A DNA stretch of 64,000 bases from Thermoanaerobaculia bacterium (GCA_041750915.1 JBGSYJ010000241.1:1067-65066); one strand, 5' to 3'. Positions 2,719-26,107 are shown, counted from the first letter of the stretch. Notes: generated by a model not told the origin, from the sequence alone. Made by a program: numbers and translations.

Positions 2719-4049
2719 AATATCCTCGATAGTGCTGGAGTCGACGCCGCCCTGACCTATGTGCCGGGAACGCCAACGCAGCTGTTTGATGGTTATTGTT
2801 CTGCGAGAAGCTTTTCAACGATTGAAACTTGCTGAAGTCTTTTCGCGTGGTCGCAAATTAACGAGAGGCTGGAACCTCTGATCGCAAAAGAGACGGGGCT
2901 CTTGTCACGGCGATCTGGATCTCGCCTTTGGGACCTGAACCCAATACCAACGGGTCGTTCTTGCTTTGGATGTGATTGTCATCGTGTTCTCTCCTTGGTC
3001 TAACGAGGGGGTTCAGAGTCGGCGAAAGCACTCAAACGCTGAGTTGTCAGACCGGACTCGCCTATGAATTGGGAAAACCAGAACCCCGTGGGGTCTCACT
3101 CTTCGAAGTGAAGAGTTCGTCCAGTGCGATAGTTCAGGCTCCTCTACAGATACAAAGAGTTTCGGACCTGTCGAAACCACGAAAACGCTGACTTGAGAGT
3201 TCGGACTCTTGCTGATAGGTGGGCAGCCGGGTCCCCGGTGGATCCGTTGGACTTCAACCGGCGCTATATGCGGGCGCGGGATAGGACGAACTGGCGATTC
3301 TACTGAGGTCAGACGACGCACAACTTGGTACGTCGAACAGACGGCTCATCTCTGATGGTTCGAAGGGACTTTCCGCAAACACCCCACCTCTGCTGGTCCC
3401 GCAGTCCGCGCCATAGTGGGACGCTCTCCCCGAGTGCGTCGATCGTTGGTCAACGTGGCTGACCGACCCGATCCCGTAGCCATCGAAACCGATCTGACCG
3501 GCGATTACCCGCCGAATTGCCCCTTCAGCAGCGGGGATCGAGAACACTCGCAAATGGGGACTCAACCCCGACTCTCTACGCCATCCTCACTCCGGCACCG
3601 GCTAATGGCGTATTCGCGTGCGGCGCGCTCAGCGAGCACACTTTCAAACCGCAGTACGTTGCTAGCGCTGGCATCTGCTAGTCGGTATTCCAACCGTGGT
3701 CGCTCAGTCGAACTCGAACCGACTGAGGAGCCAAGAGCACACACTTTCGAGACCCTGCGGTCGATCCTGTCCAACCGTCTTTGTTGGTTAGTAAGGGATG
3801 ATTCTGACGGGCAAAAACCTCATTCGAAAGGATGACGCGGTGGGCGATTGAATCGAGGCAGAGTTTTGCTTCCCCCGCAGATGCTGACGCTCAGACGATG
3901 GGGGACAATGATGAGTGATCACTTTTCTCGGGCGACCCACGAGCTATGACGTGAGGTACCCCAGAGAATCCGCCAGTGTTACCCTAGGCCCGCCGTCCGA
4001 TTTGCAGCAGGTTCTGAACCGTTTCCGCACCCTGCTCGAACCTCCGTCA

Positions 4050-6503: not shown

Positions 6504-6505
6504 CC

Positions 6506-7939
6506 ATGTCCGTTCGCGCCGCCGTCAAGTCGATTCAGGACATCATGCGGAAAGATTCAGGTGTCGACGGCGACGCCCAGCGCATCTCGCAGCTCTCCTG
6601 GATGTTCTTTCTCAAGATCATCGACGACCAGGACCAGGAGCTGGGGCTGATGCAGAAAGGCTACGACTCTCCCATTCCTCCGAGTCTCCAGTGGCGCGCC
6701 TGGGCCGCCGACCCGGAGGGAATGACCGGTGAGCAACTCCTCGGGTTTGTCAACGGCGAGCTCTTTCCCGCGTTGAAGGAGTTGACGGGCACCGACGGCC
6801 GTTCGCGCGTGGTCCGCAGCGTCTTCGAGGATGCGTACAACTACATGAAGTCCGGCCAGTTGATGCGCCAGATGATCAACAAGATCACGACCATCGACTT
6901 CAACAACCTCGCGGAGAAGCAGCACTTCGGCGAGATCTATGAGCAGATCCTCAACGACCTCCAGAGCGCCGGGAATGCCGGGGAGTACTACACGCCGCGG
7001 GCGGTCACGGCATTCATGGCCAATCGCATCGATCCGAGGCCGGGCGAGATCCTCTTCGATCCCGCGTGCGGCACCGGCGGCTTCCTCACCTGCGCCATCC
7101 GCCACATGCGCGAGCGCTACGTCAAGACAGCGAATGATGAGCACACGATGCAGAACGCGCTGCGGGCGACGGAGAAAAAGCAGCTCCCGCACATGCTCTG
7201 CGTGACGAACATGCTGCTTCACGGCATCGACGATCCATCGTTCGTCAAGCATGACAACACCCTGGCGCGCCCGTACACGAGCTACACGCAGGCCGACCGC
7301 GTGGACATCGTCCTCACCAATCCGCCGTTCGGAGGGAAGGAAGAGGATGGGATCGAGAGCAACTTCCCGAAACACTTCCAGACGCGAGAGACGGCGGACC
7401 TCTTCCTCGCGCTGATCGTGCGCCTGCTGAAGAGCGGAGGCCGCGCCGCAATGGTTCTTCCGGATGGAACGCTCTTCGGCGAGGGAGTAAAGACCCGGCT
7501 CAAGCAGCACCTGCTAGAGGAATGCAACCTACACACGATCGTCCGCCTGCCGAACAGCGTGTTCAAGCCATACGCCTCGATCGGCACGAATCTGCTCTTC
7601 TTCGAGAAAGGCACGCCGACGAGGGAGATCTGGTACTACGAGCATCGAGTGCCTGAAGGGCAGAAGGCGTACTCGATGACGAAGCCAATCCGTCTCGAGC
7701 ATCTCCAGCCATGCATCGACTGGTGGGACGCACGCGAGGAGAGCGAACTCGCCTGGAAGGTGACGATCGAAGAAATCAAGGGGCGCAACTACAACCTCGA
7801 CATCAAGAACCCGCACGAAGTCGAGGACGTCCACGGAGATCCGGAAGAGTTACTCGCGAGGCTCGAGGAGTCCGAGCAGCAAGCGGTGGCAATTCGAAGT
7901 GAGCTTAAAGCGATTCTCGAAGAGGCTTTGCGGCGATGA
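6506..7939 (+). CDS. hsdM: Type I R-M N6-adenine DNA methyltransferase subunit (HsdM)
   Basis: N-terminal HsdM_N-like region. AdoMet motif FDPACGTGGFL. Catalytic NPPFGG motif. There is a 4-nt overlap with hsdS. Confidence 0.9.
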   Translation: MSVRAAVKSIQDIMRKDSGVDGDAQRISQLSWMFFLKIIDDQDQELGLMQKGYDSPIPPSLQWRAWAADPEGMTGEQLLGFVNGELFPALKELTGTDGRSRVVRSVFEDAYNYMKSGQLMRQMINKITTIDFNNLAEKQHFGEIYEQILNDLQSAGNAGEYYTPRAVTAFMANRIDPRPGEILFDPACGTGGFLTCAIRHMRERYVKTANDEHTMQNALRATEKKQLPHMLCVTNMLLHGIDDPSFVKHDNTLARPYTSYTQADRVDIVLTNPPFGGKEEDGIESNFPKHFQTRETADLFLALIVRLLKSGGRAAMVLPDGTLFGEGVKTRLKQHLLEECNLHTIVRLPNSVFKPYASIGTNLLFFEKGTPTREIWYYEHRVPEGQKAYSMTKPIRLEHLQPCIDWWDAREESELAWKVTIEEIKGRNYNLDIKNPHEVEDVHGDPEELLARLEESEQQAVAIRSELKAILEEALRR

Positions 7940-8775
7940 ACGCTTCACAACTGCTTGAGCAATTTGATCGAATCAGCGAGGCCCCGGATGCGGTGCAGAG
8001 CATCAGAGCTTTTGTTTTGGATCTCGCGGTTCGCGGAAAGCTTGTAGGGCAGAGCAGCAGCGAAGAGCCCGCCTCTCAGCTCTTGAAACGCATTCGAAAA
8101 GAGCGTTTCACGCGCGTGCCACAATCACGACCAGTGACCCCGGTTGGCCGCGAGGAAATTCCATTCGAAGTGCCACCGAATTGGGAGTGGACGCGTTTAC
8201 TAGAGTTGCTCGTAAAGCTCACAGACGGTACACACCACTCGCCGCCGAATGGCCCCGAAGGTGCGTTCAGGTACATCACCGCAAAAAACATCAAGACTGA
8301 TGGAGTGCTGCTGGCAAATGTCTCGTATGTGACGGCAGAGGTTCATCGTGAGATCTATGCACGTTGCAATCCCGAGAAGGGAGATATCCTTTACATCAAA
8401 GACGGCGCGACGACGGGAGTGGCGACGATAAACGACCTCGATGAGCCGTTCAGTATGCTTTCGAGCGTCGCGCTTCTGAAGTTGACGTCGGGTGTTTACA
8501 ATCGCCTCCTGCTTTGCTTCTTGCGATCACCGTTTTTCTATTCGCAGATGCGGGAGCTAATGAAAGGAGCCGCGATAACGCGAGTCACCCTCAAACGTAT
8601 GTCGCCTGCGCTGGTTCCTTTGCCGCCGTTGGCCGAACAGCACCGAATCGTCGCCAGAGTGGATGAAGTAATGGCGCTCTGCGATCAGTTGGAATCGGCG
8701 CAGAGAAATAGAGCAACACTGCTTGCCAACCTTCTTGAATCGACTCTGCATCGTTTGTTGGCCGATTCTAGCTAG
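7936..8775 (+). CDS. hsdS: Type I R-M specificity subunit, half-size (single TRD flanked by conserved N- and C-terminal helices)
   Basis: 279 aa. N-terminal conserved region LDLAVRGKLV, one target-recognition domain, and C-terminal conserved helix LPPLAEQHRIVARVDEVMALCDQLE. Typical HsdS proteins are ~400-450 aa with two TRDs. Confidence 0.75.
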   Translation: MNASQLLEQFDRISEAPDAVQSIRAFVLDLAVRGKLVGQSSSEEPASQLLKRIRKERFTRVPQSRPVTPVGREEIPFEVPPNWEWTRLLELLVKLTDGTHHSPPNGPEGAFRYITAKNIKTDGVLLANVSYVTAEVHREIYARCNPEKGDILYIKDGATTGVATINDLDEPFSMLSSVALLKLTSGVYNRLLLCFLRSPFFYSQMRELMKGAAITRVTLKRMSPALVPLPPLAEQHRIVARVDEVMALCDQLESAQRNRATLLANLLESTLHRLLADSS

Positions 8776-8909: not shown

Positions 8910-9731
8910 TTATTCCCGCACAACAGGGAAAATAGGTGCAGCGTCGCTGCGCACAGCAAATCTGACAAGAAGGCGTCGATCCGCAAGTTCGAGCACTATG
9001 CGCTGAATGTCCCGCTTGTCGTGCAGCAGAGCCGGTACCACACTATCGAGCAGATGGAGCCCTTCTTCGAGGAAGTGTTCGATGTCTTCGTCGGTAGGAT
9101 TTGTAATCACTAAATCGATCTCGAGATATTCGTCGCTATTTCTCAAGAAAGCCTTGAAAAGAAAGAGAACCTCGCGCTGGGGCTCGTTCTCCTTCTTCCT
9201 ACGAAGAAGCTGCTTCACTTGTTCTTTCAATGCGCCGTAAGCATCTGAACCGATCTGACCAAAAAACCCGCTGGCAATCGCTCCCGCGAGGAAAGTACCC
9301 CCTAGTGTGAGAATAGTGAGCGGCTCGAGCGCCTTCTTCACTTCCGGTTGCGGCTCGCACCCAAGCGTCGCTTCGATCTTCCGCAAGGTCGTCTGACTTT
9401 GCTCATCACAAAATCCGCGATCGAAAGCGGCGAAAAGCCTTTCGTGACCCGGCTTCCCTAGGGGCATCCTGCGATCACATATAAACGGGACAGGGTCGCC
9501 GTGTGCCCAACACTCAATCTCGGCCTCGACGGCCAACTCTCCGTCGTCAATTTGCTTCACTTCACCCTTCAACACACGGCCTACGGGAGGCAACCTCGGA
9601 TCGTGCTGGACCCAAACGGGCAGCAGTATCCGACTAAGATCGTCAGCCATGAGTCGCAGGCCTTCAGGGGAAATCGACTCGTTATGCGCATCGACGTGAG
9701 TCGTCGCCATGATGATTCTCTGTTTTCTCAT
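8910..9731 (-). CDS. Hypothetical protein with one predicted TM segment (ILTLGGTFLAGAIASGFFGQI)
   Basis: 273-aa ORF convergent with hsdS. No recognisable motif. Confidence 0.4.
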   Translation of the reverse strand: MRKQRIIMATTHVDAHNESISPEGLRLMADDLSRILLPVWVQHDPRLPPVGRVLKGEVKQIDDGELAVEAEIECWAHGDPVPFICDRRMPLGKPGHERLFAAFDRGFCDEQSQTTLRKIEATLGCEPQPEVKKALEPLTILTLGGTFLAGAIASGFFGQIGSDAYGALKEQVKQLLRRKKENEPQREVLFLFKAFLRNSDEYLEIDLVITNPTDEDIEHFLEEGLHLLDSVVPALLHDKRDIQRIVLELADRRLLVRFAVRSDAAPIFPVVRE

Positions 9732-9912: not shown

Positions 9913-10755
9913 ATGACAGAACTCGCTTGTGATCACAGCGCGCTCACCGAGATTTTCGAACTGAGGCCCGCCGACCGCGAAGCCGTCGTAGCCGGCCTTC
10001 GCCTTATGGGACGCTTCCGACTCACAACGGTCAATGTCCTCGAGGCGTATGGGCATGGACGCGCACGAATTCGCAAAGAAAAACTCGCCTTCTACAGGAA
10101 TCTTACAGGTGATCTCAACCCTATCGATGCGCCGAACGATCTCTTGCGAAAAAGCGGCATCGCCTACCATGAAGGCAGGAATGAGATCGAAGTCGGCAGC
10201 GCCGAGGCAAGGGCATTGCTTTACGAAACGAAGCTTCCCGAGGACCTCTACCACGAGTCATTCGCCTGGAACAAAGAGCGAAAAGCAGAATTCAAAAAGA
10301 TGCATCAGGAGCTACGACAGGTCTATCAGAAGCATTTCGAGAGCGTCCCCGCCGATCGCGCCAAGACAGTGGGAGACCTCACTAGATACTTTTGCGAGCG
10401 AGTCGACACATATCTCGAATTCCTGATCATTCCATTCTACGAAAGAGCCACGAATCTGACGATCACAAGGGAGAGAGCCTTAGACTTTACGAATAGGAGC
10501 ATGCCTTGGAGGCTCTTTTGGGTCAGCCGGATTCATGCTCTCTTTACTCGAAGCATTCAAGAACAGGGAAGCAGTGATCGGAAAAACGCCGGACAAGTAG
10601 ACCTCGAGTCCGCGATCTATCTTAGCTTGACACACATCTTCGTCACCGCCGACAAGGCGCAGTACGATGCCTTCATCGACATTAACGAATTCAATCCCAC
10701 AAACGCGAGAATTTACTGGTGGCCGGACATCAGGAAAGGCTTCCTAGGTATTTAG
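9913..10755 (+). CDS. Hypothetical protein (280 aa)
   Basis: ORF divergent from the previous gene and convergent with the RT gene. No recognisable motif. Confidence 0.4.
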   Translation: MTELACDHSALTEIFELRPADREAVVAGLRLMGRFRLTTVNVLEAYGHGRARIRKEKLAFYRNLTGDLNPIDAPNDLLRKSGIAYHEGRNEIEVGSAEARALLYETKLPEDLYHESFAWNKERKAEFKKMHQELRQVYQKHFESVPADRAKTVGDLTRYFCERVDTYLEFLIIPFYERATNLTITRERALDFTNRSMPWRLFWVSRIHALFTRSIQEQGSSDRKNAGQVDLESAIYLSLTHIFVTADKAQYDAFIDINEFNPTNARIYWWPDIRKGFLGI

Positions 10756-11004: not shown

Positions 11005-12054
11005 TTACCCCAGCGTCCTTTGATCATCAGGTCGCACGACCCGTCGAGATGGTAACCGCTGCTCAGGTTGCCGGTAACGATGTCGGCTCATTCGGTGGCA
11101 CTTTCGACTCTCGCCGCGGGTGGCGCGCGTTCCATGAACCGTAGCAGTGGGCAGCACTGCCGACGCCAGGCATCGAAGCGAAGCACCTTGGGCGCGATTC
11201 ACGCTCGTGACATAGCTGATCTTCCCGTTCAGCGACGCGATTTCGTAATCAAACACGGCATTCTGGCGATTTGCAAGTTCGAGTATGGAGTCGCGGATCG
11301 TGCATATCAGTTCGCGTCCAGCGGAGATTTTGCGATTGACGATGATCCCGGTCAGCTTCTGCTGCTCGCCAGCCGTCATAACGGTTACTTTTGCCGCGCG
11401 TACAGAGTGTCCCATTCTTTTCAGAGCGGCGACAGTCGGTTCGATTGCTTCCCGGGCATGTTGTCCCGAGAATGCAATGTCATCAACGTACATCGTCCAG
11501 TCAAGACCGTAGACGGAGGCGATCTTGGCGATCTCCCGATGGAGAGGAAGCAACACAAGATTCGCGAGCACGGAACTGGTCGGCGCGCCCTGGGGCAGAC
11601 GATGTTGAAATGTCGTGAGCTTCGTCATCAGATCCGCAATCTCACCTGAATACAACAAGGTGTTCCGAAAGACGTCATAGATCGCGCGGTCGTTGATGTT
11701 TGGGAAACAGCTCTTTATGTCAATCGTGACGAGCGTGGGTGCATCCACGTGCACCGCAGCATTGTCCCGTGTCGAACGCCCCTTGATTCCGCCGAGGACT
11801 TGTTCGTCGAAAGGGAGTGTTTGAAGGATCGCGTGATAAATGCGTGACTGGAGGCTTTTGAGTGCGTCAGTGGGGTTATCGATGTGGCGCCATTTGTCGC
11901 GTTCGTGGCGCCGACGATCGAAGGGTTTGTAGTACGAGCCAGCCCGTGCCGCCACTCGGCGAATGTCGGAGCGGTTCCAGTGAAGCAGGCTTTCAAGGCG
12001 TCGCATCGACACCATTGGCTCGAATTGGAAAGCCTTCGTCCGGACAAACTTCAC
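11005..12054 (-). CDS. Reverse transcriptase, retron-like clade
   Basis: NAxxH-like RDNAAVHV before motif 1. IDIKSCFPNI (motifs 1-2). LPQGAPTSSVLANLVL (motif 4, retron-type QGxPTS). YVDDIAFSG (motif 5, YxDD). QKLTGIIVN (motif 7, VTG-like). ~350 aa, with no X/maturase or endonuclease domain and no DGR TR/VR repeats nearby. Confidence 0.75.
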   Translation of the reverse strand: MKFVRTKAFQFEPMVSMRRLESLLHWNRSDIRRVAARAGSYYKPFDRRRHERDKWRHIDNPTDALKSLQSRIYHAILQTLPFDEQVLGGIKGRSTRDNAAVHVDAPTLVTIDIKSCFPNINDRAIYDVFRNTLLYSGEIADLMTKLTTFQHRLPQGAPTSSVLANLVLLPLHREIAKIASVYGLDWTMYVDDIAFSGQHAREAIEPTVAALKRMGHSVRAAKVTVMTAGEQQKLTGIIVNRKISAGRELICTIRDSILELANRQNAVFDYEIASLNGKISYVTSVNRAQGASLRCLASAVLPTATVHGTRATRGESRKCHRMSRHRYRQPEQRLPSRRVVRPDDQRTLG

Positions 12055-12347
12055 TTTGCCGCCGAGTTCTCTTCGAGGATGACTGCGAGCAATTGGCTTC
12101 CGAGCTTTCCGGCTTCGGCTTCGGAAATGCCGTGCAGATCACGCCTTTCCGAGGCGAGAAGCGTGATGAGGTAGATCGGAACCATGAGTGCCTTCGCGAG
12201 AGCTTGTAGTGAAGCAGCGCTCGGTACTCGACGGTTCGCCTCAAGGAGCGAGATGTAACTCGCGTTCAGCTTGGAGCGACGCGCCAGCTCTTTCTGGTCG
12301 AGGTTCTTCGCGGCTCGGATAGTTCTTATCGCTTTACCGTAGTTCAT
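12051..12347 (-). CDS. XRE-family HTH DNA-binding protein, translationally coupled to the RT
   Basis: LDQKELARRSKLNASYISLLEANRRVPSAASLQALAKAL is a Cro/CI-type HTH. Its stop overlaps the RT start. Confidence 0.7.
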   Translation of the reverse strand: MNYGKAIRTIRAAKNLDQKELARRSKLNASYISLLEANRRVPSAASLQALAKALMVPIYLITLLASERRDLHGISEAEAGKLGSQLLAVILEENSAAK

Positions 12348-12424
12348 TCAGCCTTCCCGTGAAGCTGATCAGAGCCTCCGAACATTCGGAAGCTCAAAAC
12401 AGTCAACAGTTCGTTCGAAGCCAA

Positions 12425-12661
12425 TCACTCGCCGCTTACAACGAACGCCAGACACAACTCTCGTGCAAGGTCGTTCCACGCTTTTCGCGTCTTCCGTCGA
12501 TCGCCCACCGCTACCGCGTGGTCGACTTTCTGGAAGAGCGTTTCGAGCCTCTCCATTCGCTTCGGTTCCAATCCTCCGCGGCGGGTGATCTCCCGAAGAG
12601 AGGAGAGCATCGCCTTTGACGTCTTCTTGCTCTTCATAAAACCTCCATTTGGTTGTTTCAC
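12425..12661 (-). CDS. Small basic hypothetical protein (78 aa) upstream of the HTH-RT pair
   Basis: ORF on the same strand as the HTH and RT genes. Lys/Arg-rich. The region could alternatively be non-coding RNA. Confidence 0.25.
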   Translation of the reverse strand: MKQPNGGFMKSKKTSKAMLSSLREITRRGGLEPKRMERLETLFQKVDHAVAVGDRRKTRKAWNDLARELCLAFVVSGE

Positions 12662-13400
12662 CTGATCGCTCCGCGGCGTAATGCCGGCGGCACACAGGTC
12701 TCCCTATTGCTGTGTGGGCTTTCAGGGGCGGAGGTGGAACCGAACTGTTCTGTTCGCTGACTGGTGTCTCCCTCTTCAACGCAGCAGCTTTCACTGTCAC
12801 GACATGAAAGGGATAGACGAGACAACTGTCGTGGCATGCAGCGCGAACGCTGATGCCCACGATGGGCAGGACTCGGATGAATCCTGCGGCAACCCGAAAG
12901 TTGCCCTCAGTAGCCGGCCGTTAGGCCGACCGTGGCAACGGGCTGCAATGCAGCGCGCGCCATTACCCGACACATTCTGGGAGATGAAGAGCTTCAAAGA
13001 ACGCTACCGCGTCGCGCGGCCAAGAGAATTATCATCATCAGTTGATTAAATGTCAAGTGAGATGACTATGAGTAATGTCGCCAAGCTTGGTATTCCGGTT
13101 CCCATCGAGGGAAAGATTTGACGCAACCAGACTCTAAGTCCTGTAGAAAGTTGGGGCCTACAGAGGCCCTCGGCGACACACCGGCCGGCGCCTGGACCCT
13201 AGACTTTGAGGCTCAGTCTGGATGATCTGCGCGGGACTTCATGGGGAGTTCCAAGGCGACTCGTCAAAGATTCGCAGCGGTCCCTGTGCAGTGGTATACC
13301 GGAAGAGGATGTAAGGAACTCCGACATAAGAATGTGGTCTGAGTAGGTCGAGAGCTGGAGTGTGCAAACAGCGATCTTCCCGGATTTCGGTAGGGGGACG
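12662..13400. ncRNA. Highly structured intergenic region (multiple hairpins, 10-bp direct repeat atgcagcgcg at 12835 and 12948); candidate location for an RT-associated ncRNA (msr/msd-like) and a divergent promoter
   Basis: Hairpins read directly: cacacagg..ctgtgtg (12691-12716), cacgaca..tgtcgtg (12797-12830), ggcaac-ccgaaa-gttgcc (12888-12906), ctgtag..ctacag (13141-13163). Confidence 0.25.
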
Positions 13401-13405
13401 ACACC

Positions 13406-15355
13406 ATGGCTTCTAGAGGAGGACGGAAAGTAGGGGCTCCATCTGCAAGGCTTCCGAATAGACCTCGACAACATCAGCTCGAAACCGAGTCACGAAACGC
13501 GTTTCGTAGTGCTATACCCTCTGTGTGGGTGTTTCGAGACCTCGATCAGGATTATGGGATAGACGGCGAGGTCGAGATCTTTGAAGACTCTGGTGAAACA
13601 ACTGGTCTCAAGTTTCTCGTTCAGCTCAAGGCGACCGATCAAATTCTATCTCGTGCTCTTCGCCTTAGAGTGCGCGACTCAGCTGCCGGTTACTATTGGT
13701 CGCTGCAGCTTCCCGTTCTGATCGTTCGTTTCCACGCACCAAGTGAACGAATTTACTTTCGTTGGTTTCATTCGCTCGATCGGTACTACGGCAAAAAGTC
13801 GAAAGACGGGATGAGTTTCAAGCTGACAGATGCCGACGCGTGGGATTTACAGGCTCCTCCCAGAATTCGACGCGTAGTCAACGAATATCTCTCGGTAAAA
13901 TCCTCCCGTCTTCAGTTGCCGTTGATGATTTCCGTGTCAGTCGATGACGCCGGTATTCTAGGTATCCCGGCGCCCGGGATCATTTCGTTTTTGCAACGCC
14001 TCGCTTCAACGGTACGAGAGGTAATACGCTTCAGATGGGACGAGGAAGGCTCGAACTCCCTGATCCTTTCTAAGGAATCCCTCAGGGTCCGACTCGCGGG
14101 TGCCGATGTCTTCACGCTCCACTGGAACAATCAGAAACTGGGGCATTCCAAAGAGTCTCTTGCAAAGGATTCGTTGCTCGCCATTGCACTCTCTCTCGAC
14201 TTTTACGGCCATAGCACGTACGCGGCAACCCTGATCGCAAAGTTCGCTCACGGCTCCATTTTCGTGAGACAACTCGATATGGCCGTTGCCCTCGCCTCAG
14301 TCCTCGGAAGAGCTGGTCACACCTCATCGGCGCTCGAGATCGCTGCAGTTCTGTTCAAAGACGACCAAACGGTCGCGTCCGCACAGGCATTCACCCTGAC
14401 GTTTGTCGTCAATCAACGTGATCTCTCAGACTCGCAACTGAGTCACGGCATCCAGTTTATGCAGTTCCACGCGCAGTGCTTAGAGGATCGGGGTGTGCTG
14501 CGCGATGCAGCTGTTCTTCGCTATAACTGCGGTAGCACTCTTCGAGTCGCGAGTCGGTACCGTGAAGCCATTCGTGAATACCGCGCCGCCGCGAGGCTTG
14601 AGCCTCAGTACCTGCAGAGAAGCTATTTCTGGCGCGAGCTGGCTGGGATGTTGTTCTTGAACAGGCGATTTAATAGAGCAGTATGGGCTTACGAAAAAGC
14701 GCTTGGGCTAGAAGATGAACCGCTAGTTCGGTGTCTGCGGGCGGATGCGCAAATGTTTGCGGGTAAGTACGCGATCGCACTGCAAGCGTTCGAAGAGTGG
14801 GGCCCCCAATGTGACTCACCCGCAGATCTTGAATGGAGATTAAAAGCGATTGCCTTGAAAACGTTGATAGGGGTAGTGGGGCTTTCAGAGCAGCGCAGAT
14901 TCCCCTTGGCGGCTCAGGAAGAGTTCCAAGACAATGACACGTGCGAAGAGGCACTCGCCGATCTCGCCGGAGACGCGTTGTCGGCAAGCGCCTGGGAGCA
15001 TCTGGGTACATGCCGTGTAGATCGGCCAACTGAGGCCGGTCTGAGCCTACTCATCGTCGGACTAATCCACCCTCAACATATCCCGGCGCTAATCTCAGCA
15101 AGCTCACTCTTGAGGGACGTGAATATGGATTTGTCTTGTGAAATACTCTCATTTGCACTTCTGAAAAACCGCGAAGAAGTGAGCGACTTTCTGATTGCGC
15201 TTGGCATCACAACTGAAGAGGGGTCTGCTGATCTAAGTCGAAAGCTGGCAGAGATCATAAGAGTACTACCGGCCTTAGATGACAAGGATGTGCTTCGTTT
15301 TCACCATGATGATTTGTCATTCGATGAGATTGTGAGATATCTCGAGAAAGATTGA
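13406..15355 (+). CDS. DUF4365-like N-terminal (restriction-endonuclease-fold) domain protein with C-terminal TPR-like repeats
   Basis: N-terminal GIDGEVEIFEDSGETTGLKFLVQLKAT matches the DUF4365 pattern. The C-terminal half has TPR-like helical repeats (AIREYRAAARLEPQY..., AVWAYEKALGLEDEP). Confidence 0.45.
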   Translation: MASRGGRKVGAPSARLPNRPRQHQLETESRNAFRSAIPSVWVFRDLDQDYGIDGEVEIFEDSGETTGLKFLVQLKATDQILSRALRLRVRDSAAGYYWSLQLPVLIVRFHAPSERIYFRWFHSLDRYYGKKSKDGMSFKLTDADAWDLQAPPRIRRVVNEYLSVKSSRLQLPLMISVSVDDAGILGIPAPGIISFLQRLASTVREVIRFRWDEEGSNSLILSKESLRVRLAGADVFTLHWNNQKLGHSKESLAKDSLLAIALSLDFYGHSTYAATLIAKFAHGSIFVRQLDMAVALASVLGRAGHTSSALEIAAVLFKDDQTVASAQAFTLTFVVNQRDLSDSQLSHGIQFMQFHAQCLEDRGVLRDAAVLRYNCGSTLRVASRYREAIREYRAAARLEPQYLQRSYFWRELAGMLFLNRRFNRAVWAYEKALGLEDEPLVRCLRADAQMFAGKYAIALQAFEEWGPQCDSPADLEWRLKAIALKTLIGVVGLSEQRRFPLAAQEEFQDNDTCEEALADLAGDALSASAWEHLGTCRVDRPTEAGLSLLIVGLIHPQHIPALISASSLLRDVNMDLSCEILSFALLKNREEVSDFLIALGITTEEGSADLSRKLAEIIRVLPALDDKDVLRFHHDDLSFDEIVRYLEKD

Positions 15356-15410
15356 GAGTAGAGACAACTCTCGACATTAGACTGCTCGCAGGCAAGATTC
15401 CAAGGAACAG

Positions 15411-16226
15411 TTGCCAACAACAATGATTGATTATTCCGAGCCTGGGGCGGTTCTCTGGGCCGTTGATGATTCGGAGCTGACGATCGAAGGGAAGGCCCAC
15501 ACGCTTCTCGGCGCTGTTAGCTTCAGTCACCCGTGGCCGGTGTGCAACGGGATGGCCGAATTGCGGAACCACCTGAACCTTCCGGACGATTTTGAGTTCA
15601 AATGGAACAGCCGAATTGCGAGACCTGCAGACCGAGAGAAAGTGAGCGAGATGTTTCTCCGCATTCTGGCTCGCTCCGTCGGGGTAGTGACTGTCGTTGA
15701 AGGCCGTGACCATCAGAAAGGAGCTGAATTGCTGGCGCAGCAGATCGCCGATTTTCAGCAGCCAAGGACTGCGTCCCTGGCATTAATGGACAACGGGATC
15801 GTCAAGAAGCCGTTCGAGTTTCGTCGATTTCTTAATCAGTCCACAGACGACAACCTTCGCTACTTTCAGTTTGCGAGCGTCGACTCGTCACTCAACGACC
15901 TGATCCAATGTGCAGATATTTTTGCGGGCTTCCTCGCACTCAAAATCAAACTCGCGCTCAACATTGTGAAAGACCGCACGATCACCGACGATGAAGGGGA
16001 GCTATCCCTCTCTTCAGTGATTGAATTCTCTCTACGATACGTCATCTGGGGGGCTCGTAACGAGGTCGCGTTTGATTGGGATAATCAGACCGAGTCGCCT
16101 CCACCCGAGTTTTGGATTAAATATGCGAAGGGTTTCGGCCTGAGAATTCACTCTTCCGTCTCGGAGCACGTGCTCGAAAGGGTTTACTCGCAGGCAGGAA
16201 CCTTCTACATGGGCTGCTTGCATTAG
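15411..16226 (+). CDS. DUF3800-like protein
   Basis: 271 aa. The N-terminal acidic motif WAVDDSE and the C-terminal LIQCADIFAGF (QxxD) resemble the two DUF3800 signature motifs. Confidence 0.4.
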   Translation: MPTTMIDYSEPGAVLWAVDDSELTIEGKAHTLLGAVSFSHPWPVCNGMAELRNHLNLPDDFEFKWNSRIARPADREKVSEMFLRILARSVGVVTVVEGRDHQKGAELLAQQIADFQQPRTASLALMDNGIVKKPFEFRRFLNQSTDDNLRYFQFASVDSSLNDLIQCADIFAGFLALKIKLALNIVKDRTITDDEGELSLSSVIEFSLRYVIWGARNEVAFDWDNQTESPPPEFWIKYAKGFGLRIHSSVSEHVLERVYSQAGTFYMGCLH

Positions 16227-16347
16227 CATCGGCTTACCACTCTGCTACAAGCCTCCACATAACCGCAAACCTTTACGTTGAACAAGTCGCTGATTACGTG
16301 CGCTAGTAAGTAGAAACGTTTCGCACGATACGAAGTACCATGGACAC

Positions 16348-17310
16348 ATGGCAAAACGAGACTTCGTTGCCGAAATTCTCCAACGTCGCGGTAGGTCGAA
16401 ACATAGCTTTGCGGTAGGCAACCTGTTCCGCCGAATGCTTCGACTGGAGATCGCTTTCGATCAGTCAGGCACGATTGATCCCGAAATGATGCGTTATTTT
16501 CCGATAGCGATCGTGGCTTGTATGGAGAGCTTCTTTCGTGCCACGATCAGCGAGTTGATCGACGCGGGCGAGCCGTACACTAACCGACTCGACGAGTTCG
16601 AAAATATGAAGGTGGAGCCCTCGGTGATCAGGGCGATCCACGGGCAGAGGATCACTGCAGGAGAATTTGTCAGCCACCTGGTTCCGATAAACTCGCTGGA
16701 AGATATAGATCGTTCGATCTCGGTTCTAGTAAACGATGACTTCATAAAACGCGTGAAGACTGTTCGGGACCGCTGGGCGATCGAGGTCGAGGGTCAGTTG
16801 GATGCGCCGATTATTGTGGATCCGGGGAAGATAATCGCGGGAGTGAAAGAGGCGTTTCGGATTCGGCACATTCTTGCCCATGAGTTTTCGAATGACGAGA
16901 CGTTGTTCGACCGGACAATGATCGAAGAATCCTTTCGATGTTCGACGACATTCCTGCGCGCAGCGTCTGCGGTCATAAACGAGATTCGCTTTCCCGGCTC
17001 ACCACTCACGCAACTTGCGATGAACGAAAAATCCGCCGATGACTTTGCAACCGCTGATGCTGCGCTAAACGACGCCGTATCAGCACTGAATGAGCTGCTT
17101 GAGAGTGAAGAGCAAAAACTTTTGGCTACAGGGCAGTCAGCGTGGGAAATCACTCGGAACACCACCGCTACCATTGGCGCCAATCTACAAGGGAAGGGAG
17201 GCACAATCTGGCCAGTGCTCTACTATAGTCTCGCTCGAAGTCTCACCGCTACTCGGATGGAAGAGATTCGACACGTGATCGGCATCCATGAGTCGATGCG
17301 GCAGAACTGA
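16348..17310 (+). CDS. Two-domain hypothetical: N-terminal region with a possible HEPN-like Rx6H motif (RIRHILAH), C-terminal DUF1311 (LprI-like) domain
   Basis: The C-terminal segment ADAALNDAVSALNELL...QSAWEITRN...GGTIWPV...LTATRMEEI follows the DUF1311 pattern (ADxxLNxxY, QxAWxxxR, GGS/T). The N-terminal HEPN call is weak. Confidence 0.4.
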   Translation: MAKRDFVAEILQRRGRSKHSFAVGNLFRRMLRLEIAFDQSGTIDPEMMRYFPIAIVACMESFFRATISELIDAGEPYTNRLDEFENMKVEPSVIRAIHGQRITAGEFVSHLVPINSLEDIDRSISVLVNDDFIKRVKTVRDRWAIEVEGQLDAPIIVDPGKIIAGVKEAFRIRHILAHEFSNDETLFDRTMIEESFRCSTTFLRAASAVINEIRFPGSPLTQLAMNEKSADDFATADAALNDAVSALNELLESEEQKLLATGQSAWEITRNTTATIGANLQGKGGTIWPVLYYSLARSLTATRMEEIRHVIGIHESMRQN

Positions 17311-17665
17311 CGCGTCGGCCGAGGATCCGAACTATCGGCGCTGTAAATGAAACTCGACTGCTAACGATTCAGTTCGGTGGACTGATGATGGGCTTGTCTC
17401 GCAATAGCAAAGCTCCAGCTATCCGCGATGCTATTACCTACAACGCGATAATCTGGTGGCCGGGGTAGGCTTGGTCCCAAAAGTCTAGGCGAGCGGCATG
17501 TTTACCGATGTTCAGTTTCAAGTCGAAGTGTCGGACATCCCCCCATCGGTCGCGAATCGTCATCGTGAACTCGAACTGGCTAGGGTGTGGCGTTGGAATA
17601 CTTGTGGGCGCAACAAATGTGTCGCCCGATGGCAAAGTACTCGGGTGCCACGTTGAACCGGGCAT

Positions 17666-17885
17666 CGGGGTCAGACGCGTCTTTCCCAGTGACTTACTCG
17701 CTAATCCAGCAGAGCGTGACGGGTCATGGAGTATATGCGGCTCGCGACATACCTCGCCGAGCGAAGAGCATTTTGTAGTTCGAAGGCGATCTCATTCCGT
17801 CGATCATGACCGCACCGCAGTGTGCGCGACAAGGCGGATCAGCTGTCGGATACAGTAAGTCACTGGGAAAGACGCGTCTGACCCC
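17666..17885. repeat. Perfect 31-bp inverted repeat (ggggtcagacgcgtctttcccagtgacttac / gtaagtcactgggaaagacgcgtctgacccc) flanking 158 bp
   Basis: Read directly. The arms are at 17666-17696 and 17855-17885. Confidence 0.85.
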
Positions 17886-18014
17886 AACGTCCTCCGCTTC
17901 GCCGTGGCGCGCCGGTCGCTGTACGTCCTCCGCCGCCAGGCCCGCAGCGAGTAACAGCGCAAGCTGACAGCGAAAGAGCTTCGCTTCTAAATCGCTCCGA
18001 CCGGTCGCTATCGA

Positions 18015-19760
18015 CTAATCGAAAGCTATCCCGAGCAGACGGCCAGATGGCTCCAGGTCAGTTAGGCGAGTCGGGATCCGCCCTTCCAGGAAGTCCCCGC
18101 CGAGGAGCGCGGTCGGGAATTCGTCAGAGTTCATTGCGCACAGGTACTGAAATCCAAATCTCGCCGATTTGGCGGCCGCCAGCTCGAGCGCGAGCGCCTT
18201 CTGCCTCTCATCAACACCCTCAAAGATGGTGCTGTCGTGAATGAGCATGCCCGGCGCCTGGCTGTGGTCGGACCACAGTTCAGCGAGCATCAAATCGAAG
18301 CAGAACATGGCCATGTTCTCGACGCCGGCAGCATCCTTCCGGGGCATTTGCCAGCCGAAGAAGAAGCCATTGCTTCGGCTCTCGATGATGAATGACCCCG
18401 CCTGGCCGTAAAGATATTGGGTGTTCTCGAAAAAAATGCCGAGGATCTTCTCCCTTTGCAGGCGCAATTCAGAGAGGCTGAGTCGTGTCAGCTGTTGGAG
18501 GCGTGCTTCATCGACCTTCAGTGCGTCACGGCCCTCCGTGAACTTACGAATGTTCTCAAGCCGCTGCTCGACGTCCTTTAGCTGCGTGACTGTAGCGACA
18601 TGAAGCTGCTGCAGCTTCATGTACTCGTCCAGGGCGCCGTGGCTCTGCAACACTGTGAGGAGTTCCGCGCGCTCATCGCTCAGCCGCCGAATCTCCGCAG
18701 TACGCTCCGCGACTGACGCCTTCAAGCGCGCCATTTCGGTTGACAGAAACGCCCGTCGATCCTCGATGACACCTCGGTGGAAGTCTCGGACCTCATCGAA
18801 GCGCTTCAGGACGACGTCTGGAAGTTCGACGGACGCTGCCTCGTAGGCGCGTCGAATTTCCGTTTCACCGGGGTCCACTTCGATTTTCAGACTCTCCGCG
18901 TAATTCTGCAGGAGCCTCGTCTCGGTGAAGTTCGTGTCCGTGAGCTTCTGCAATGAGGCGGTGATGACGTTCGCTCGCCGCTCGATGTCTTCATACTGAG
19001 GATGAACCTTGAACGACTTGAGCCCAGATTCTTCGTCGCGAAGTCGCATCTGGAGTTTCACCCGGTCTGCCTCAAGTTGACCCTCTGATCCGAGTACGTT
19101 GTTGAGAAGCCCTGCGCCAGCCGCTTTTCTCAACTTTTGCAGGAGGGCTTCCTGCTCTTTGTGGAGCTTCCACTCGACTGCGGTCTGCCACGAGAGGCCA
19201 AGAAGGAATGCGATGTTGATGCGTGACTCGTACGATCCCTGCTTTCTATGCGTCTCAAACGGGCTTGCATACGCGTCTTTACCGACACGCACGAAGTAAG
19301 GGAACAGATTCCGAAAGGTCGGCTGATGAGCGACCGGATCGTCTACCGACAGCCCGAACATTAGCTGCCCGAGGACCCGCACCCATTCGTCGATCTTCAG
19401 AAAAGGGCCGTGCAAGAGGGTGTCCGCATGCGGTCGAATCGGAAACCACGAGGTGTCACCCGCAAAAATGACTTTGGCTGGCTCCGAGGTCGCGCGCGTG
19501 ACCGAGAACGTCCGTCCGCGGAGAACGACATCGAGTGTGAACTCCCAGCCTTCCAGCGCAAACTTCAGCAATCCCTTGTCCTTTGTCGTACTCGCGCCGA
19601 GGCAAAAGTGAATGATCTGGAGCAAGGTCGTCTTGCCCAAGCCATTGCGCGAGTCCTTTTCGGTGGACCTTTCGGTCCGATCCGCTAGGAGGACGTTGAA
19701 ATCTCCGCGAAGGGCGACCGTCCGGAATCCCGCGTTATTCGCCCTGATCTTGGCGATCAC
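18015..19760 (-). CDS. ABC/SMC-like ATPase with long coiled coil (Lamassu LmuB / ABC-3C ATPase-like)
   Basis: N-terminal Walker A NGLGKTTLLQII. ~300-aa coiled-coil middle rich in E/R/L heptads. C-terminal Walker B/D-loop region MLIHDSTIFEGVD. Its start overlaps the upstream small ORF. Confidence 0.6.
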   Translation of the reverse strand: MIAKIRANNAGFRTVALRGDFNVLLADRTERSTEKDSRNGLGKTTLLQIIHFCLGASTTKDKGLLKFALEGWEFTLDVVLRGRTFSVTRATSEPAKVIFAGDTSWFPIRPHADTLLHGPFLKIDEWVRVLGQLMFGLSVDDPVAHQPTFRNLFPYFVRVGKDAYASPFETHRKQGSYESRINIAFLLGLSWQTAVEWKLHKEQEALLQKLRKAAGAGLLNNVLGSEGQLEADRVKLQMRLRDEESGLKSFKVHPQYEDIERRANVITASLQKLTDTNFTETRLLQNYAESLKIEVDPGETEIRRAYEAASVELPDVVLKRFDEVRDFHRGVIEDRRAFLSTEMARLKASVAERTAEIRRLSDERAELLTVLQSHGALDEYMKLQQLHVATVTQLKDVEQRLENIRKFTEGRDALKVDEARLQQLTRLSLSELRLQREKILGIFFENTQYLYGQAGSFIIESRSNGFFFGWQMPRKDAAGVENMAMFCFDLMLAELWSDHSQAPGMLIHDSTIFEGVDERQKALALELAAAKSARFGFQYLCAMNSDEFPTALLGGDFLEGRIPTRLTDLEPSGRLLGIAFD

Positions 19761-19986
19761 GTGCCGAGGCCCTCTGAAGCTTCCCGTTCAACAACTCGAC
19801 GGCACCAACGGCGAAGAGAAAACTGACCGCCACCGTGAACCGGTTGAAGTTCTCTAGTTCGTGAATTTTTCGCGCGCTCTCCCAGAGCGATGAGACCGTT
19901 CGGGGCTGAGAAAGCTGCTTCAAGATCAGCGCTCCCATCCCAACAACAGATCGACGCGGCGTAATGTGCTTGTCGGGCAGAATCAC
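19735..19986 (-). CDS. Small middle-component-like protein (83 aa) between the effector and the ATPase
   Basis: Start overlaps the stop of the HNH gene (ATGA at 19983-19986). The end overlaps the ATPase start. Confidence 0.45.
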   Translation of the reverse strand: MILPDKHITPRRSVVGMGALILKQLSQPRTVSSLWESARKIHELENFNRFTVAVSFLFAVGAVELLNGKLQRASARDRQDQGE

Positions 19987-20753
19987 GGCTCGAAGACCTC
20001 ACACAGTTCAAACAAGTAGGAAAGAACCGCCTGGCCGGCTGCACGCCGAGAGCTGCCCGCCAATACTCCACCCGACGCGATCACCGAGAGTCGTTCGAAC
20101 AGATCGTCACCCTTCACTCCATCGTGCAGGAGTGCGTAATAGTGCTTACGGAAACCAAATTTCAGCCGGTCGGGGAAGGTCGAATCATTCGAGGTCTCCG
20201 CCGACACATAGTCCCGGACCCTTGAAGCGATGGAGATTCCATTCGTGAGTGCGAGCCGTGTGATACCTGAGAGCTCGTTCTTCAACATCTTCGCGTCGAT
20301 CTCGGTCCGTGTCAGCGTTCCTGGTGCCTGCTCGACCGCGGGATCGGCAACGAAACGCTCGCAGACGGCATCGAGTTCCGCGAAGGTCACGTCGGCTGTC
20401 GCCAAGTTTCGGACCGCCGCGATCTTTTCCTCCATCGCGCGCTTCATCACCCTCAGCGAATCAACGGGATGGGACTTGGGTGCCTTGTCTACTTGGGTGT
20501 GGTGATTTGGGCACAGCAGAATCAGATTCTCAGGTGCGTTCTTCTTCGCGATGGGGATCTTGGCGCCCTTCACGCCCCGCGGGCCCTCATCCGCGAGAGG
20601 GTAGACGTGCGCAGTCTCGTAAAGGTGAATGTCGCCGTCGGCGGGCGTCGGTTGGTCGAGGATCTTGTTGCACCCACCGAAGTTGCATATCCCTGCCGAA
20701 CGCGCGATCACGATCAGCTTTATCTTGGTTGGAACCTCGGCTTGTCTTGTCAT
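19983..20753 (-). CDS. HNH endonuclease-domain protein with C-terminal helical domain (candidate effector of the ABC ATPase system)
   Basis: GICNFGGCNK...AHVYPLADEGPRG...NLILLCPNHHTQVD has the CxxC...H...N...CPNHH HNH zinc-finger nuclease signature. It is the first gene of a three-gene overlapping operon. Confidence 0.65.
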   Translation of the reverse strand: MTRQAEVPTKIKLIVIARSAGICNFGGCNKILDQPTPADGDIHLYETAHVYPLADEGPRGVKGAKIPIAKKNAPENLILLCPNHHTQVDKAPKSHPVDSLRVMKRAMEEKIAAVRNLATADVTFAELDAVCERFVADPAVEQAPGTLTRTEIDAKMLKNELSGITRLALTNGISIASRVRDYVSAETSNDSTFPDRLKFGFRKHYYALLHDGVKGDDLFERLSVIASGGVLAGSSRRAAGQAVLSYLFELCEVFEP

Positions 20754-22615: not shown

Positions 22616-23818
22616 GTTGACCCGGTTTCGTGGACACCTGACCATTAGGGAGAGGAGTCACGATGCCGAGGACACGAAAAGCGTATGCAGCAGAGGCGAC
22701 CCAGTTCCGAATCGACTGCGCCGACGGCTCGAACCTTCGACTTAGCTCTTCTGGCGTTTGACCCTTCCGAACCAACTCCAGGGTCGGCGGAGCGACGGGC
22801 TGACCAGCGACGAGCGGGACGAGCTCACGCGCCTGCGACGTGAGAACCGCCGGCTGGAAGAAGAGCGGGAGATAGTGTCAAAAGCCGCGGCCTGGTTCGC
22901 TCAGGAGACGCAGAAGAAGCCGAACGGATCTTCAGAGCAAATCAGGCCTTTCATTCGATCGCTGCGATGTGCCGTGTACTGGAAGTCTCCACCAGCGGGT
23001 ACTACGCATGGCGAGGTCGTCTCGAGTCGACCAGAGCAAAGGAAGACGAAAAGCTGCAGCAAAGGATCAAAGCAATTCACACGTGGTCCCGAGGAACCTA
23101 CGGGGCTCCACGCGTGCATGCGGAGTTGAAGGACGAAGGGACGCTAGTGGGATGCAAGCGCGTGGCTCGCCTGATGAAAGCGGGCGGGATTGTGGGCGTA
23201 AGCCGGCGAAAATGGACCGTAACGACGCGACGAGATCCGGCCGCACGTCCGGCTCCTGATCTGGTCGATCGCAGCTTCAAAGCCGAACGACCGAATCAGC
23301 TATGGGTGGCGGACATCACGTATGTCCCGACCCTGACGGGGTTCCTCTACCTGGCCGTAGTTCTGGATGTATCGAGCAGGAAGATCGTCGGCTGGGCGAT
23401 GCAGAGGCATCTTCGAACCTCGCTCGTGCTCGATGCGCTGGAAATGGCAGTGGAACAGCGTCGTCCGGATGCAGGGCTAATTCACCACTCGGATCAGGGC
23501 TGCCAGTACACCGCGATCGGCTTCGGACAACGATGCAAGCAAGCGGGCATCCGACCCTCGATGGGATCGGTTGGCGACTGCTACGACAACGCCATGTGCG
23601 AGAGCTTCTTCGCCACGCTCGAATGTGAGCTTATCGATCGAACGCGCTTCATGAATCACTCAGAAGCCCGTGCGGCGATCTTCGATTTCATTGAAGGCTG
23701 ATACAACCCGCATCGTCGTCACTCTAGTCTCGCATATCATTCGCCTGTGAATTTCGAACGGATCGAGCAGATGTCTGCCTGATCCCAAGCTGTGAACCGT
23801 CCACGAAACCGGGGTAGC
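22616..23818 (+). mobile_element. IS3-family insertion sequence, degenerate (OrfA internally deleted or frameshifted; OrfB has a premature TGA replacing the conserved Trp of the GWYNP motif)
   Basis: The OrfA start MPRTRKAYAAE at 22663 runs into a stop after ~32 aa, then resumes in another frame with the IS3 leucine-zipper LTRLRRENRRLEEEREIVSKAAAWFA. OrfB (22967..23701) has a DDE integrase core (WVADITYV...HHSDQGCQYT...DCYDNAMCESFF). Its terminal IEG-stop-YNPHRRHSSLAYHSPVNFE continues in frame. Terminal inverted repeats cccggtttcgtggac (22621-22635) and gtccacgaaaccggg (23800-23814). Confidence 0.8.
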
Positions 23819-25909: not shown

Positions 25910-26107
25910 TCACTCTTCGTCGACGATCGCGGGTTTCTTGATTGCTTCCGAGTAGCGCTCAAGTTCTGCGGCGAGGTCTTCTATAGACTCAGCACGCGGG
26001 AACACCGGCGTCTCAGTCCATCCAGTGACACGTCCGGTGTCGTCGTAAAACACCTCATGTATCGCGAACTCTCCGGCTCGTTCAACTACCCTGTAGTTCC
26101 AGCTCAC
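25910..26107 (-). CDS. Small immunity candidate (65 aa) for the Rhs C-terminal toxin; HicB/UPF0150-like antitoxin fold suspected
   Basis: Immediately follows the Rhs gene (stop/start adjacent at 26104-26107). NYRVVERAGEFAIHEVFYDDTGRVTGWTETP...IEDLAAELERYSEAIKK resembles HicB-type small antitoxins. Confidence 0.45.
   Translation of the reverse strand: MSWNYRVVERAGEFAIHEVFYDDTGRVTGWTETPVFPRAESIEDLAAELERYSEAIKKPAIVDEE

Follow-up and report, generated by a model that had tools for sequence, protein, structure and literature searches.

Three co-oriented genes in a bacterial defence island may combine a stand-alone DUF4365-TPR gene with a facultative pair of DUF3800 and HEPN-DUF1311 genes

Do three neighbouring genes on one strand of a bacterial defence island form a single system, or do they belong to separate modules? 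We addressed this question in a 64,000-nucleotide (nt) stretch of DNA from a Thermoanaerobaculia bacterium (GCA_041750915.1, JBGSYJ010000241.1:1067-65066), which is referred to as a whole as the window. The genes, labelled A, B and C in plus-strand order, occupy 3.9 kb at positions 13406-17310:

13406-15355, plus strand: gene A, open reading frame (ORF) of 649 amino acids (aa)
15411-16226, plus strand: gene B, ORF of 271 aa with a TTG start
16348-17310, plus strand: gene C, ORF of 320 aa

A preliminary description, made from the sequence of the window, had placed three co-oriented plus-strand genes here, and their coordinates and orientation were confirmed. All motifs that it quoted for A, B and C are present in the ORFs, and its intergenic gaps are short as described, measuring 55 nt (A-B) and 121 nt (B-C) rather than 56 and 122 bp. 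Gene B has an alternative start, an ATG at 15423, from which the source assembly calls a product of 267 aa. The reading we favour, and regard as moderately probable, is that the run consists of a stand-alone gene A and a facultative B-C pair, two nuclease modules side by side in a defence island. It draws on what the analysis established: the structure of the genes, the identity and fold of the domains, the conservation of catalytic residues, the cytoplasmic location and the patterns of synteny.

Judged from its sequence, gene A encodes a putative Mrr/DREN-like DUF4365 PD-(D/E)xK nuclease fused to a long TPR array, with no nucleoside triphosphatase (NTPase) domain:

13481-13870, plus strand: nuclease domain of A, residues 26-155 (Pfam DUF4365, PF14280)
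14162-15151, plus strand: TPR/alpha-solenoid region of A, about residues 253-582 (family profile search)

The Pfam DUF4365 match to residues 26-155 scored 53.7 bits against a cut-off of 24.3 (E 2.9e-14), and the motif DYGIDGEVEIF...FLVQLKAT is present. Residues D49, D53, E57, Q73 and K75 are invariant in the alignment of the A family (21 homologues), indicating an intact PD-(D/E)xK-type site. The A-family profile matched consensus TPR and OGT TPR structures (E 7e-39) over profile positions 253-582 in up to 15 matched stretches, and A alone gave weak, sub-threshold matches to the Pfam TPR families. The DUF4365 and TPR domains proposed for A in the preliminary description were thus both recovered. 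No Walker A motif was found in any of the 21 family members scanned, which shows that A is not a STAND/Avs protein, and searches of A against Pfam and PADLOC returned no STAND, AAA or other NTPase family. The family comprises about 50 full-length homologues of 620-670 aa.

DUF4365 has been described as the collateral nuclease of short prokaryotic Argonaute (pAgo) systems (PMC10810196); in SPARDA, its collateral DNase/RNase activity is switched on by target-induced assembly (PMC10810196, PMC12205087), and in Divona a DUF4365 protein acts as a single-gene defence (10.1101/2024.07.02.601686). Gene A resembles SPARDA and Divona in its DUF4365 PD-(D/E)xK domain with an intact D...E...QxK site. Unlike SPARDA, it lacks both an APAZ domain and a neighbouring Argonaute, and a TPR solenoid spanning about 330 residues is present instead. 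We found no APAZ domain or pAgo gene in or beside A, whose neighbours are a retron and gene B, and no sequence-level match between the A nuclease and the solved SPARDA chains; the PADLOC Argonaute-associated model Aga_REase matched A residues 41-122 only (profile positions 28-112 of 429). Like the Avs/STAND nuclease-NTPase-TPR sensors, A combines an N-terminal Mrr-like nuclease with a C-terminal TPR array in one polypeptide, an analogy that suggests the same logic of TPR recognition coupled to nuclease activation. It differs from them in lacking the NTPase module and in being far shorter (649 aa). By analogy with the SPARDA DUF4365/DREN nuclease and with nuclease-TPR sensors, A would act in the cytoplasm as sensor and effector in one protein. 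The trigger bound by the TPR solenoid would most likely be a phage protein or other macromolecule, and trigger binding or oligomerisation would switch on the DUF4365 nuclease, leading to indiscriminate nucleic-acid cutting. The DUF4365-TPR family is of interest as a compact candidate single-gene defence without an Avs-type NTPase.

Gene B, according to family profiles and its structure model, encodes a divergent DUF3800 protein with a predicted RNase H-like fold. The window protein itself stayed below the Pfam cut-off for DUF3800 (PF12686; 19.7 bits against 21, E 1.5e-3, profile positions 106-147 only), and 11 of 13 B-family members matched the family (best E 1.1e-7). The motifs VDDSE and IQCAD are present; the B family conserves D19-D20-S21-E22, E97, D127 and Q166/D169, and the subfamily has the C-terminal signature GLRIHSS...YMGC. 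For the AlphaFold model of B (predicted local distance difference test, pLDDT, 73), the best Foldseek matches in the PDB were RNase HII (3p83_E, 1.2e-4), followed by retroviral integrase cores and RNase HI. These results bear out the DUF3800-like assignment of the preliminary description at the level of the family and the fold. Matches of B and its relatives to the PADLOC models PDC-M04 and PDC-S51 were confined to 24-55 residues at the QxxD helix (E 1e-6 to 2e-3); no full-length match was obtained for B, and no match for C. A scan of the entire window with Rfam at the gathering threshold gave no match, including the eleven DUF3800-associated RNA motifs (DUF3800-I to XI; PMC5737381), and Rfam at E<=5 in 12200-18100 gave nothing relevant.

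Members of DUF3800 are RNase H2-like (PMC7736814, PMC10910872) and include the effector of type VII retrons (PMC7736814). They are encoded beside Cas13, Cas12a2 and Cas12a3 (10.64898/2026.08.25.746378, PMC10910872, PMC13594972), and TPR-DUF3800 proteins accompany Cas12a2/a3 (PMC10910872, PMC13594972). B shares with the retron- and CRISPR-linked proteins an RNase H/RNase HII-like fold, an N-terminal D-(D)-x-E motif and a C-terminal QxxD (PMC7736814, PMC10910872), and, like the Cas13-associated Csx32, it adjoins a predicted HEPN RNase gene. Unlike the type VII retron protein, B has no fused reverse transcriptase (RT), and the nearby RT is of type VI and on the opposite strand. In contrast to the DUF3800 proteins linked to Cas12a2/a3 and Cas13, it occurs outside a CRISPR context, is not fused to TPR repeats and carries its own GLRIHSS/YMGC signature.

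Gene C is predicted to encode a cytoplasmic protein in which a HEPN domain of the RiboL-PSP type is followed by a C-terminal DUF1311 domain:

16435-16992, plus strand: HEPN domain of C, about residues 30-215, all-helical, RiboL-PSP type (homologue profiles, model)
16864-16884, plus strand: motif R173-H-I-L-A-H178-E179 of C, predicted HEPN catalytic Rx4H
17008-17265, plus strand: DUF1311/LprI-fold helical bundle of C, residues 221-306 (Pfam, model)

The DUF1311/LprI domain was recognised by Pfam (47 bits against a cut-off of 22, E 3.7e-12), and the C model superposed on the DUF1311 structure 3gi7 with a root-mean-square deviation of 1.7 A over 92 columns, in agreement with the preliminary description. 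The N-terminal domain of the model is all-helical. A search of the N-terminal 215 residues of C against Pfam gave no HEPN or other match for the window protein. The motif FRIRHILAHE is present, and across 42 C homologues (mean column identity 28%) the only invariant columns are F170, R173, H178 and E179. Besides LprI, the sole recurring Pfam family is PF18735 (HEPN_RiboL-PSP), which matched 12 of the 42 homologues and spanned nearly the whole profile in five of them (L011, L016, L026, L013 and L014; L numbers denote homologue loci). The best match, at residues 40-213 of the L011 protein, reached 28.5 bits against a cut-off of 28.4 (E 1.7e-6). The invariant Rx4H and these homologue matches support the HEPN call that had been made tentatively, and the top match of the C model in BFVD was a MAE_28990-like HEPN protein, although this match was weak. 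C thus resembles PF18735/MAE_28990-like HEPN proteins in the full-length profile matches of several homologues and in the invariant Rx4H, and departs from HEPN_RiboL-PSP proteins in its fusion partner, which is DUF1311 and not endoribonuclease L-PSP.

The preliminary description had called DUF1311 usually periplasmic, which does not apply to C. A simple hydropathy scan (not SignalP) detected no signal peptide, lipobox or transmembrane segment; the N-terminus is charged, and the maximal 19-residue hydropathy is 0.48 for windows starting in the first 30 residues. Over its last 90 residues C matches LprI and superposes on 3gi7, as expected of LprI/DUF1311 proteins (YecT, PP0307). These proteins are exported lipoproteins or periplasmic, whereas C has no export signal and its DUF1311 is a C-terminal appendage of a HEPN protein. 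An exhaustive profile search returned 566 clusters (50% identity) at E<=1e-30, nearly all of 310-335 aa, and this near-uniform length indicates that the two-domain architecture is fixed. RefSeq names the homologues 'DUF1311 domain-containing' or 'lysozyme inhibitor LprI family protein', and this naming misses the HEPN half. Recognition of the family is thus an annotation correction: at least 566 clusters at 50% identity are predicted cytoplasmic HEPN-DUF1311 fusions with an invariant Rx4HE site. Our literature search found no paper mentioning both HEPN and DUF1311, and the fusion is a HEPN architecture not found in the literature searched. One C homologue seems rearranged (L022, 7296-8756 and 11104-11322; L023; Noviherbaspirillum autotrophicum): residues 67-307 stand behind another N-terminal extension in a 486-aa ORF, with a copy of residues 4-64 encoded separately about 2.4 kb downstream.

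Whether the genes travel together was assessed by synteny. The C-based scan used one genome per species and gave 43 loci from many phyla, at which B and A were looked for within 8 kb; the B-based metagenome scan gave 21 loci, supplemented with contigs from an exact look-up, and six independent contexts of A were included. Presence at the loci was tested with tblastn and family hidden Markov models (HMMs). The A+B+C trio was not found at the 43 C genome loci, the 21 B metagenome loci or the six A contexts. No A homologue was detected near B or C homologues at 24 B loci or 51 C loci, no B homologue at the C genome loci (0/43 within 8 kb, tblastn and HMM), and neither B nor C near A homologues in the six contexts (tblastn/profile). 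The trio is conserved nowhere else, and the idea of one three-gene module, raised in the preliminary description, was not supported. Of the A contexts, one adjoins ThsB-TIR genes, one is a Proteus island carrying integrases and GmrSD, one lies beside a 1064-aa methyltransferase and an AAA_15 ATPase, one is near an integrase, one is a viral contig and one is a site among unknowns. All-vs-all clustering of neighbouring ORFs revealed no other recurring partner of C or B, only integrases and lineage-specific neighbours. The preliminary description had left the choice between one module and three independent genes; independence holds for A, and full independence does not hold for B and C, whose adjacency recurs.

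B followed directly by C on the same strand was found at about six distinct loci (L004, L007/L057, L055, L058, L062 and L070). The gaps in this paired clade are 7-36 nt, all below 40 nt, and the flanks differ between loci. At L005/L006 and L059, an intact B is followed by a truncated C remnant (1052-1297 and 1014-1212, respectively). Seven loci carry B without C (L051, L052, L054, L060, L061, L063 and L064), and L067-L069 have a frameshifted B and no C. The C remnants behind intact B, together with the frameshifted B genes without C, indicate that neither gene depends on the other. The paired C proteins form one clade, and the window C lies elsewhere, with 27% identity to them compared to 37-41% to the unpaired L001, L002 and L008. 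Because the window C belongs to a different clade, the same B-C order and orientation recurs in two widely separated parts of the C tree. In the closest relative of the window B (72% identity; P0010/L083), the next gene is an LssY_C gene, not C. These results indicate that B and C are non-randomly linked, since two rare families keep the same order and orientation throughout a clade with changing flanks and do so again in a distant C lineage. The pairing is facultative, since each gene is common in the absence of its partner and B persists where C has decayed.

If the predicted domains are active, C would be a HEPN ribonuclease whose Rx4H site is completed by dimerisation, with the DUF1311 helical bundle as a dimerisation or regulatory domain, and it would cut single-stranded cellular and phage RNA, causing growth arrest. 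B may be an accessory metal-dependent RNase H-fold nuclease and contribute a second activity, directed at the RNA of hybrids or at structured RNA. The pairing would be an optional reinforcement; B and C are each tolerated, and presumably work, alone. Such an arrangement fits the theme of HEPN and RNase H-fold nucleases acting together (PMC3710099) and the occurrence of DUF3800 beside RNA-cleaving effectors. In RNase LS, RnlA is a fusion of HEPN with RNase H domains, and neighbourhoods in which HEPN accompanies NamA (RNase H-fold) are also known (PMC3710099), a theme termed the 'two-headed RNase' by Anantharaman et al. 2013 (PMC3710099). Like RnlA-LsoA and NamA-HEPN, B-C places a predicted HEPN RNase beside an RNase H-fold nuclease. 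Unlike RNase LS, the HEPN of C is RiboL-PSP-like, B is DUF3800, no RnlB-like antitoxin is present and the partnership is optional.

Several observations weigh against the combination of a stand-alone A with a facultative B-C pair of nucleases. Every activity, trigger and defence role that it gives to the A, B and C families is one that we infer. The HEPN call combines motif invariance with homologue Pfam scores at or below the cut-off, the window C itself giving no match, and a Foldseek PDB search with the C model retrieved the DUF1311 half only and no HEPN. Confidence in the B model is moderate (pLDDT 73), and it aligns with RNase H folds at low TM-scores (0.33-0.36). The window B and C are each closer to unpaired relatives, and their gap of 121 nt exceeds the gaps of the paired clade; their adjacency in the window could be a secondary juxtaposition. 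Furthermore, the 142 genes flanking C in 40 genomes match 169 Pfam families, housekeeping families included, and the commonest family, phage integrase, has only three occurrences among them. The C family is not consistently confined to defence islands. The 'defence-flavoured' label of the preliminary description accordingly suits the context in the window and does not extend to the C family in general, whose neighbours are heterogeneous.

The explanation that survives best beside the favoured one is that the run holds three independent single-gene modules, the B-C adjacency in the window being incidental island stacking with no functional meaning here. C stands alone at 43 of 43 genome loci, the partner is missing from the closest relatives of the window C (L001, L002) and of the window B (P0010/L083), the window gap of 121 nt stands against <40 nt in the paired clade, and B remained intact after C decay in L005/L006/L059. 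However, it is very unlikely that two specific rare genes would adjoin by chance twice, and we consider this explanation possible but doubtful.

A, B and C could alternatively form one signalling cascade, a CRISPR-free analogue of the Cas13-CASK and Cas12a3 loci, in which an RNase is found with a TPR-bearing effector and a DUF3800 protein. In Cas13-CASK, Csx33 (kinase-TPR) and Csx32 (DUF3800) accompany Cas13 (HEPN), and the kinase with its TPR is activated by CCA fragments that arise when tRNA is cleaved (10.64898/2026.08.25.746378). A comparable relay is suspected for Cas12a3 with TPR-DUF3800. Correspondingly, RNA fragments released by the C HEPN on infection would be sensed by the TPR array of A, which would switch on its DUF4365 nuclease, and B would tune the signal by making, trimming or clearing it. 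The co-orientation and short gaps of the three genes are consistent with this idea, as are the domain-level parallel with Csx33, Csx32 and Cas13 (10.64898/2026.08.25.746378), the TPR-DUF3800 proteins beside Cas12a2/a3 (PMC10910872, PMC13594972) and the B locus L063, which has a trypsin-TPR gene just upstream. The cascade is nevertheless improbable: orthologue-level synteny is absent from the 24 B loci, 51 C loci and six A contexts, and A is a conserved, self-contained family found in many unrelated neighbourhoods. A weaker version would make B and C alone a new two-nuclease anti-phage system with the DUF1311 bundle as sensor.

B-C might also be a type II-like toxin-antitoxin system, in which a toxic nuclease is held by an obligatory neutraliser. 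HEPN toxins usually have a cognate antitoxin (PMC3710099), and in one clade the two genes do form a tight cassette with gaps of 7-36 nt. Against an obligatory neutraliser, intact C occurs without B in more than 40 genomes, intact B without C at at least seven loci, and B is intact beside decayed C. In addition, both proteins keep nuclease-type catalytic residues, and neither resembles MNT or a small antitoxin. As regards a HEPN-MNT partner, the window B matches DUF3800 only (Pfam), and no nucleotidyltransferase is among the commonest families in the 142 C-flanking genes. A toxin-antitoxin relation is thus quite improbable. It is very improbable that C is an ordinary LprI/YecT-type periplasmic lysozyme inhibitor unrelated to nucleic-acid conflict: its LprI domain scores above the Pfam cut-off and RefSeq names its homologues accordingly, but it has no signal peptide, lipobox or transmembrane segment, two thirds of it is another domain, the Rx4HE motif holds three quarters of the invariant residues of the family, and homologues match HEPN_RiboL-PSP or lie in restriction-modification (R-M) clusters.

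With A standing alone and B-C as a facultative pair, nothing at the locus is categorically new in biology; its kinds are already known, namely HEPN and RNase H-fold nucleases and nuclease-TPR sensors. B-C provides an independent, CRISPR-free case of DUF3800 beside a predicted RNA-cutting effector, here a stand-alone HEPN RNase, and a simple two-gene setting for learning the role of DUF3800. The most useful by-product is the recognition of the large, currently mis-described HEPN-DUF1311 family.

Further observations concern the homologue loci. Some C homologues are embedded in R-M clusters. On plasmid pSULKU03 of Sulfuricurvum kujiense (L081, 5090-7809), a C homologue is separated by 5 nt from a preceding DUF4062 gene and by 15 nt from a following 'restriction endonuclease' gene, directly downstream of a type I hsdR; RefSeq labels the C homologue as DUF1311 only. 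This locus could represent a further multi-gene setting of the HEPN-DUF1311 family. A HEPN_Apea/ApeA_NTD1 gene is convergent and directly downstream of B-C at L004 (9912-11306, minus strand) and L058 (7572-9107, minus strand), and the L004 gene adjoins an Eco29kI R-M system and an integrase. These HEPN_Apea genes, together with the R-M system and integrase of L004, indicate that this B-C clade at least sits in defence-type islands. A gene of about 250 aa is divergent from B and immediately upstream of it at L055 (3065-4300, minus strand), L058 (4904-5668, minus strand), L005/L006 (3-170, minus strand), L059 and L067-L069; it belongs to one lineage, with or without C, and is absent from the window. 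At L063 (4496-6804), where B has no C, the gene just upstream encodes a trypsin-like protease-TPR protein, and together with the window A upstream of B it hints at a domain-level 'effector-TPR + DUF3800' theme, comparable to the published TPR-DUF3800 and Csx33/Csx32 examples. A possible operon upstream of B at L004 was compared with L063, and the proteins are unrelated.

The surroundings of the run in the window comprise the following features:

3915-8775: type I R-M operon hsdR/hsdM/hsdS
8910-9731, minus strand: unknown gene of 273 aa between the type I R-M operon and the retron
9913-10755, plus strand: unknown gene of 280 aa, divergent from the 273-aa gene
11005-12347, minus strand: type VI retron (PADLOC RT_VI 8.6e-66, HTH_VI 3.8e-19)
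11005-12054, minus strand: retron RT
12051-12347, minus strand: retron helix-turn-helix (HTH) gene
18015-20753, minus strand: ABC-3C / PDC-M68 system (PADLOC PDC-M68B 4.9e-178, PDC-M68A 7.4e-65)
18015-19760, minus strand: ABC ATPase-CTD10-DUF2326 gene of ABC-3C
19735-19986, minus strand: candidate middle component of ABC-3C, 83 aa
19983-20753, minus strand: HNH-CTD10 gene of ABC-3C
22758-23701: IS3-family transposase, two overlapping frames
26104-33605: large RHS-repeat genes

The type I R-M operon, the IS3 transposase and the RHS genes confirm a mobile defence/conflict island. The position given for the run in the preliminary description, between a retron-like module and an ABC-ATPase operon, proved correct, the two being the type VI retron and the ABC-3C system. 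Neither the 273-aa nor the 280-aa protein had a significant match in Pfam, PADLOC, NCBIfam or PHROGs, and the 280-aa protein gave one sub-threshold NCBIfam match (E 0.055). A small ORF just 3' of C (17438-17665, minus strand) had no match in Pfam, and a promoter/terminator scan gave nothing informative on the operon structure of A, B and C. In an IMG/VR search for phage origin, B and C were not found and A had one match.

A link between the trio and the adjacent retron was considered because DUF3800 is the effector of type VII retrons. It was rejected: type VI is the best-scoring class for the local RT, which is encoded on the opposite strand together with an HTH partner of its own, and no RT homologue was found near the A, B and C homologues at loci L001-L080. 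The retron msr/msd RNA is presumably located at 12662-13028, where an Rfam search gave no match. On the retron strand, a near-consensus promoter (TTGACA-17-GATAAT, 11/12) is present at 13056-13028 (minus strand), and a 78-aa ORF at 12425-12661 (minus strand) has a size that suits the type VI small accessory proteins described by Mestre et al. On the other side of the run, the ABC-3C / PDC-M68 system is complete.

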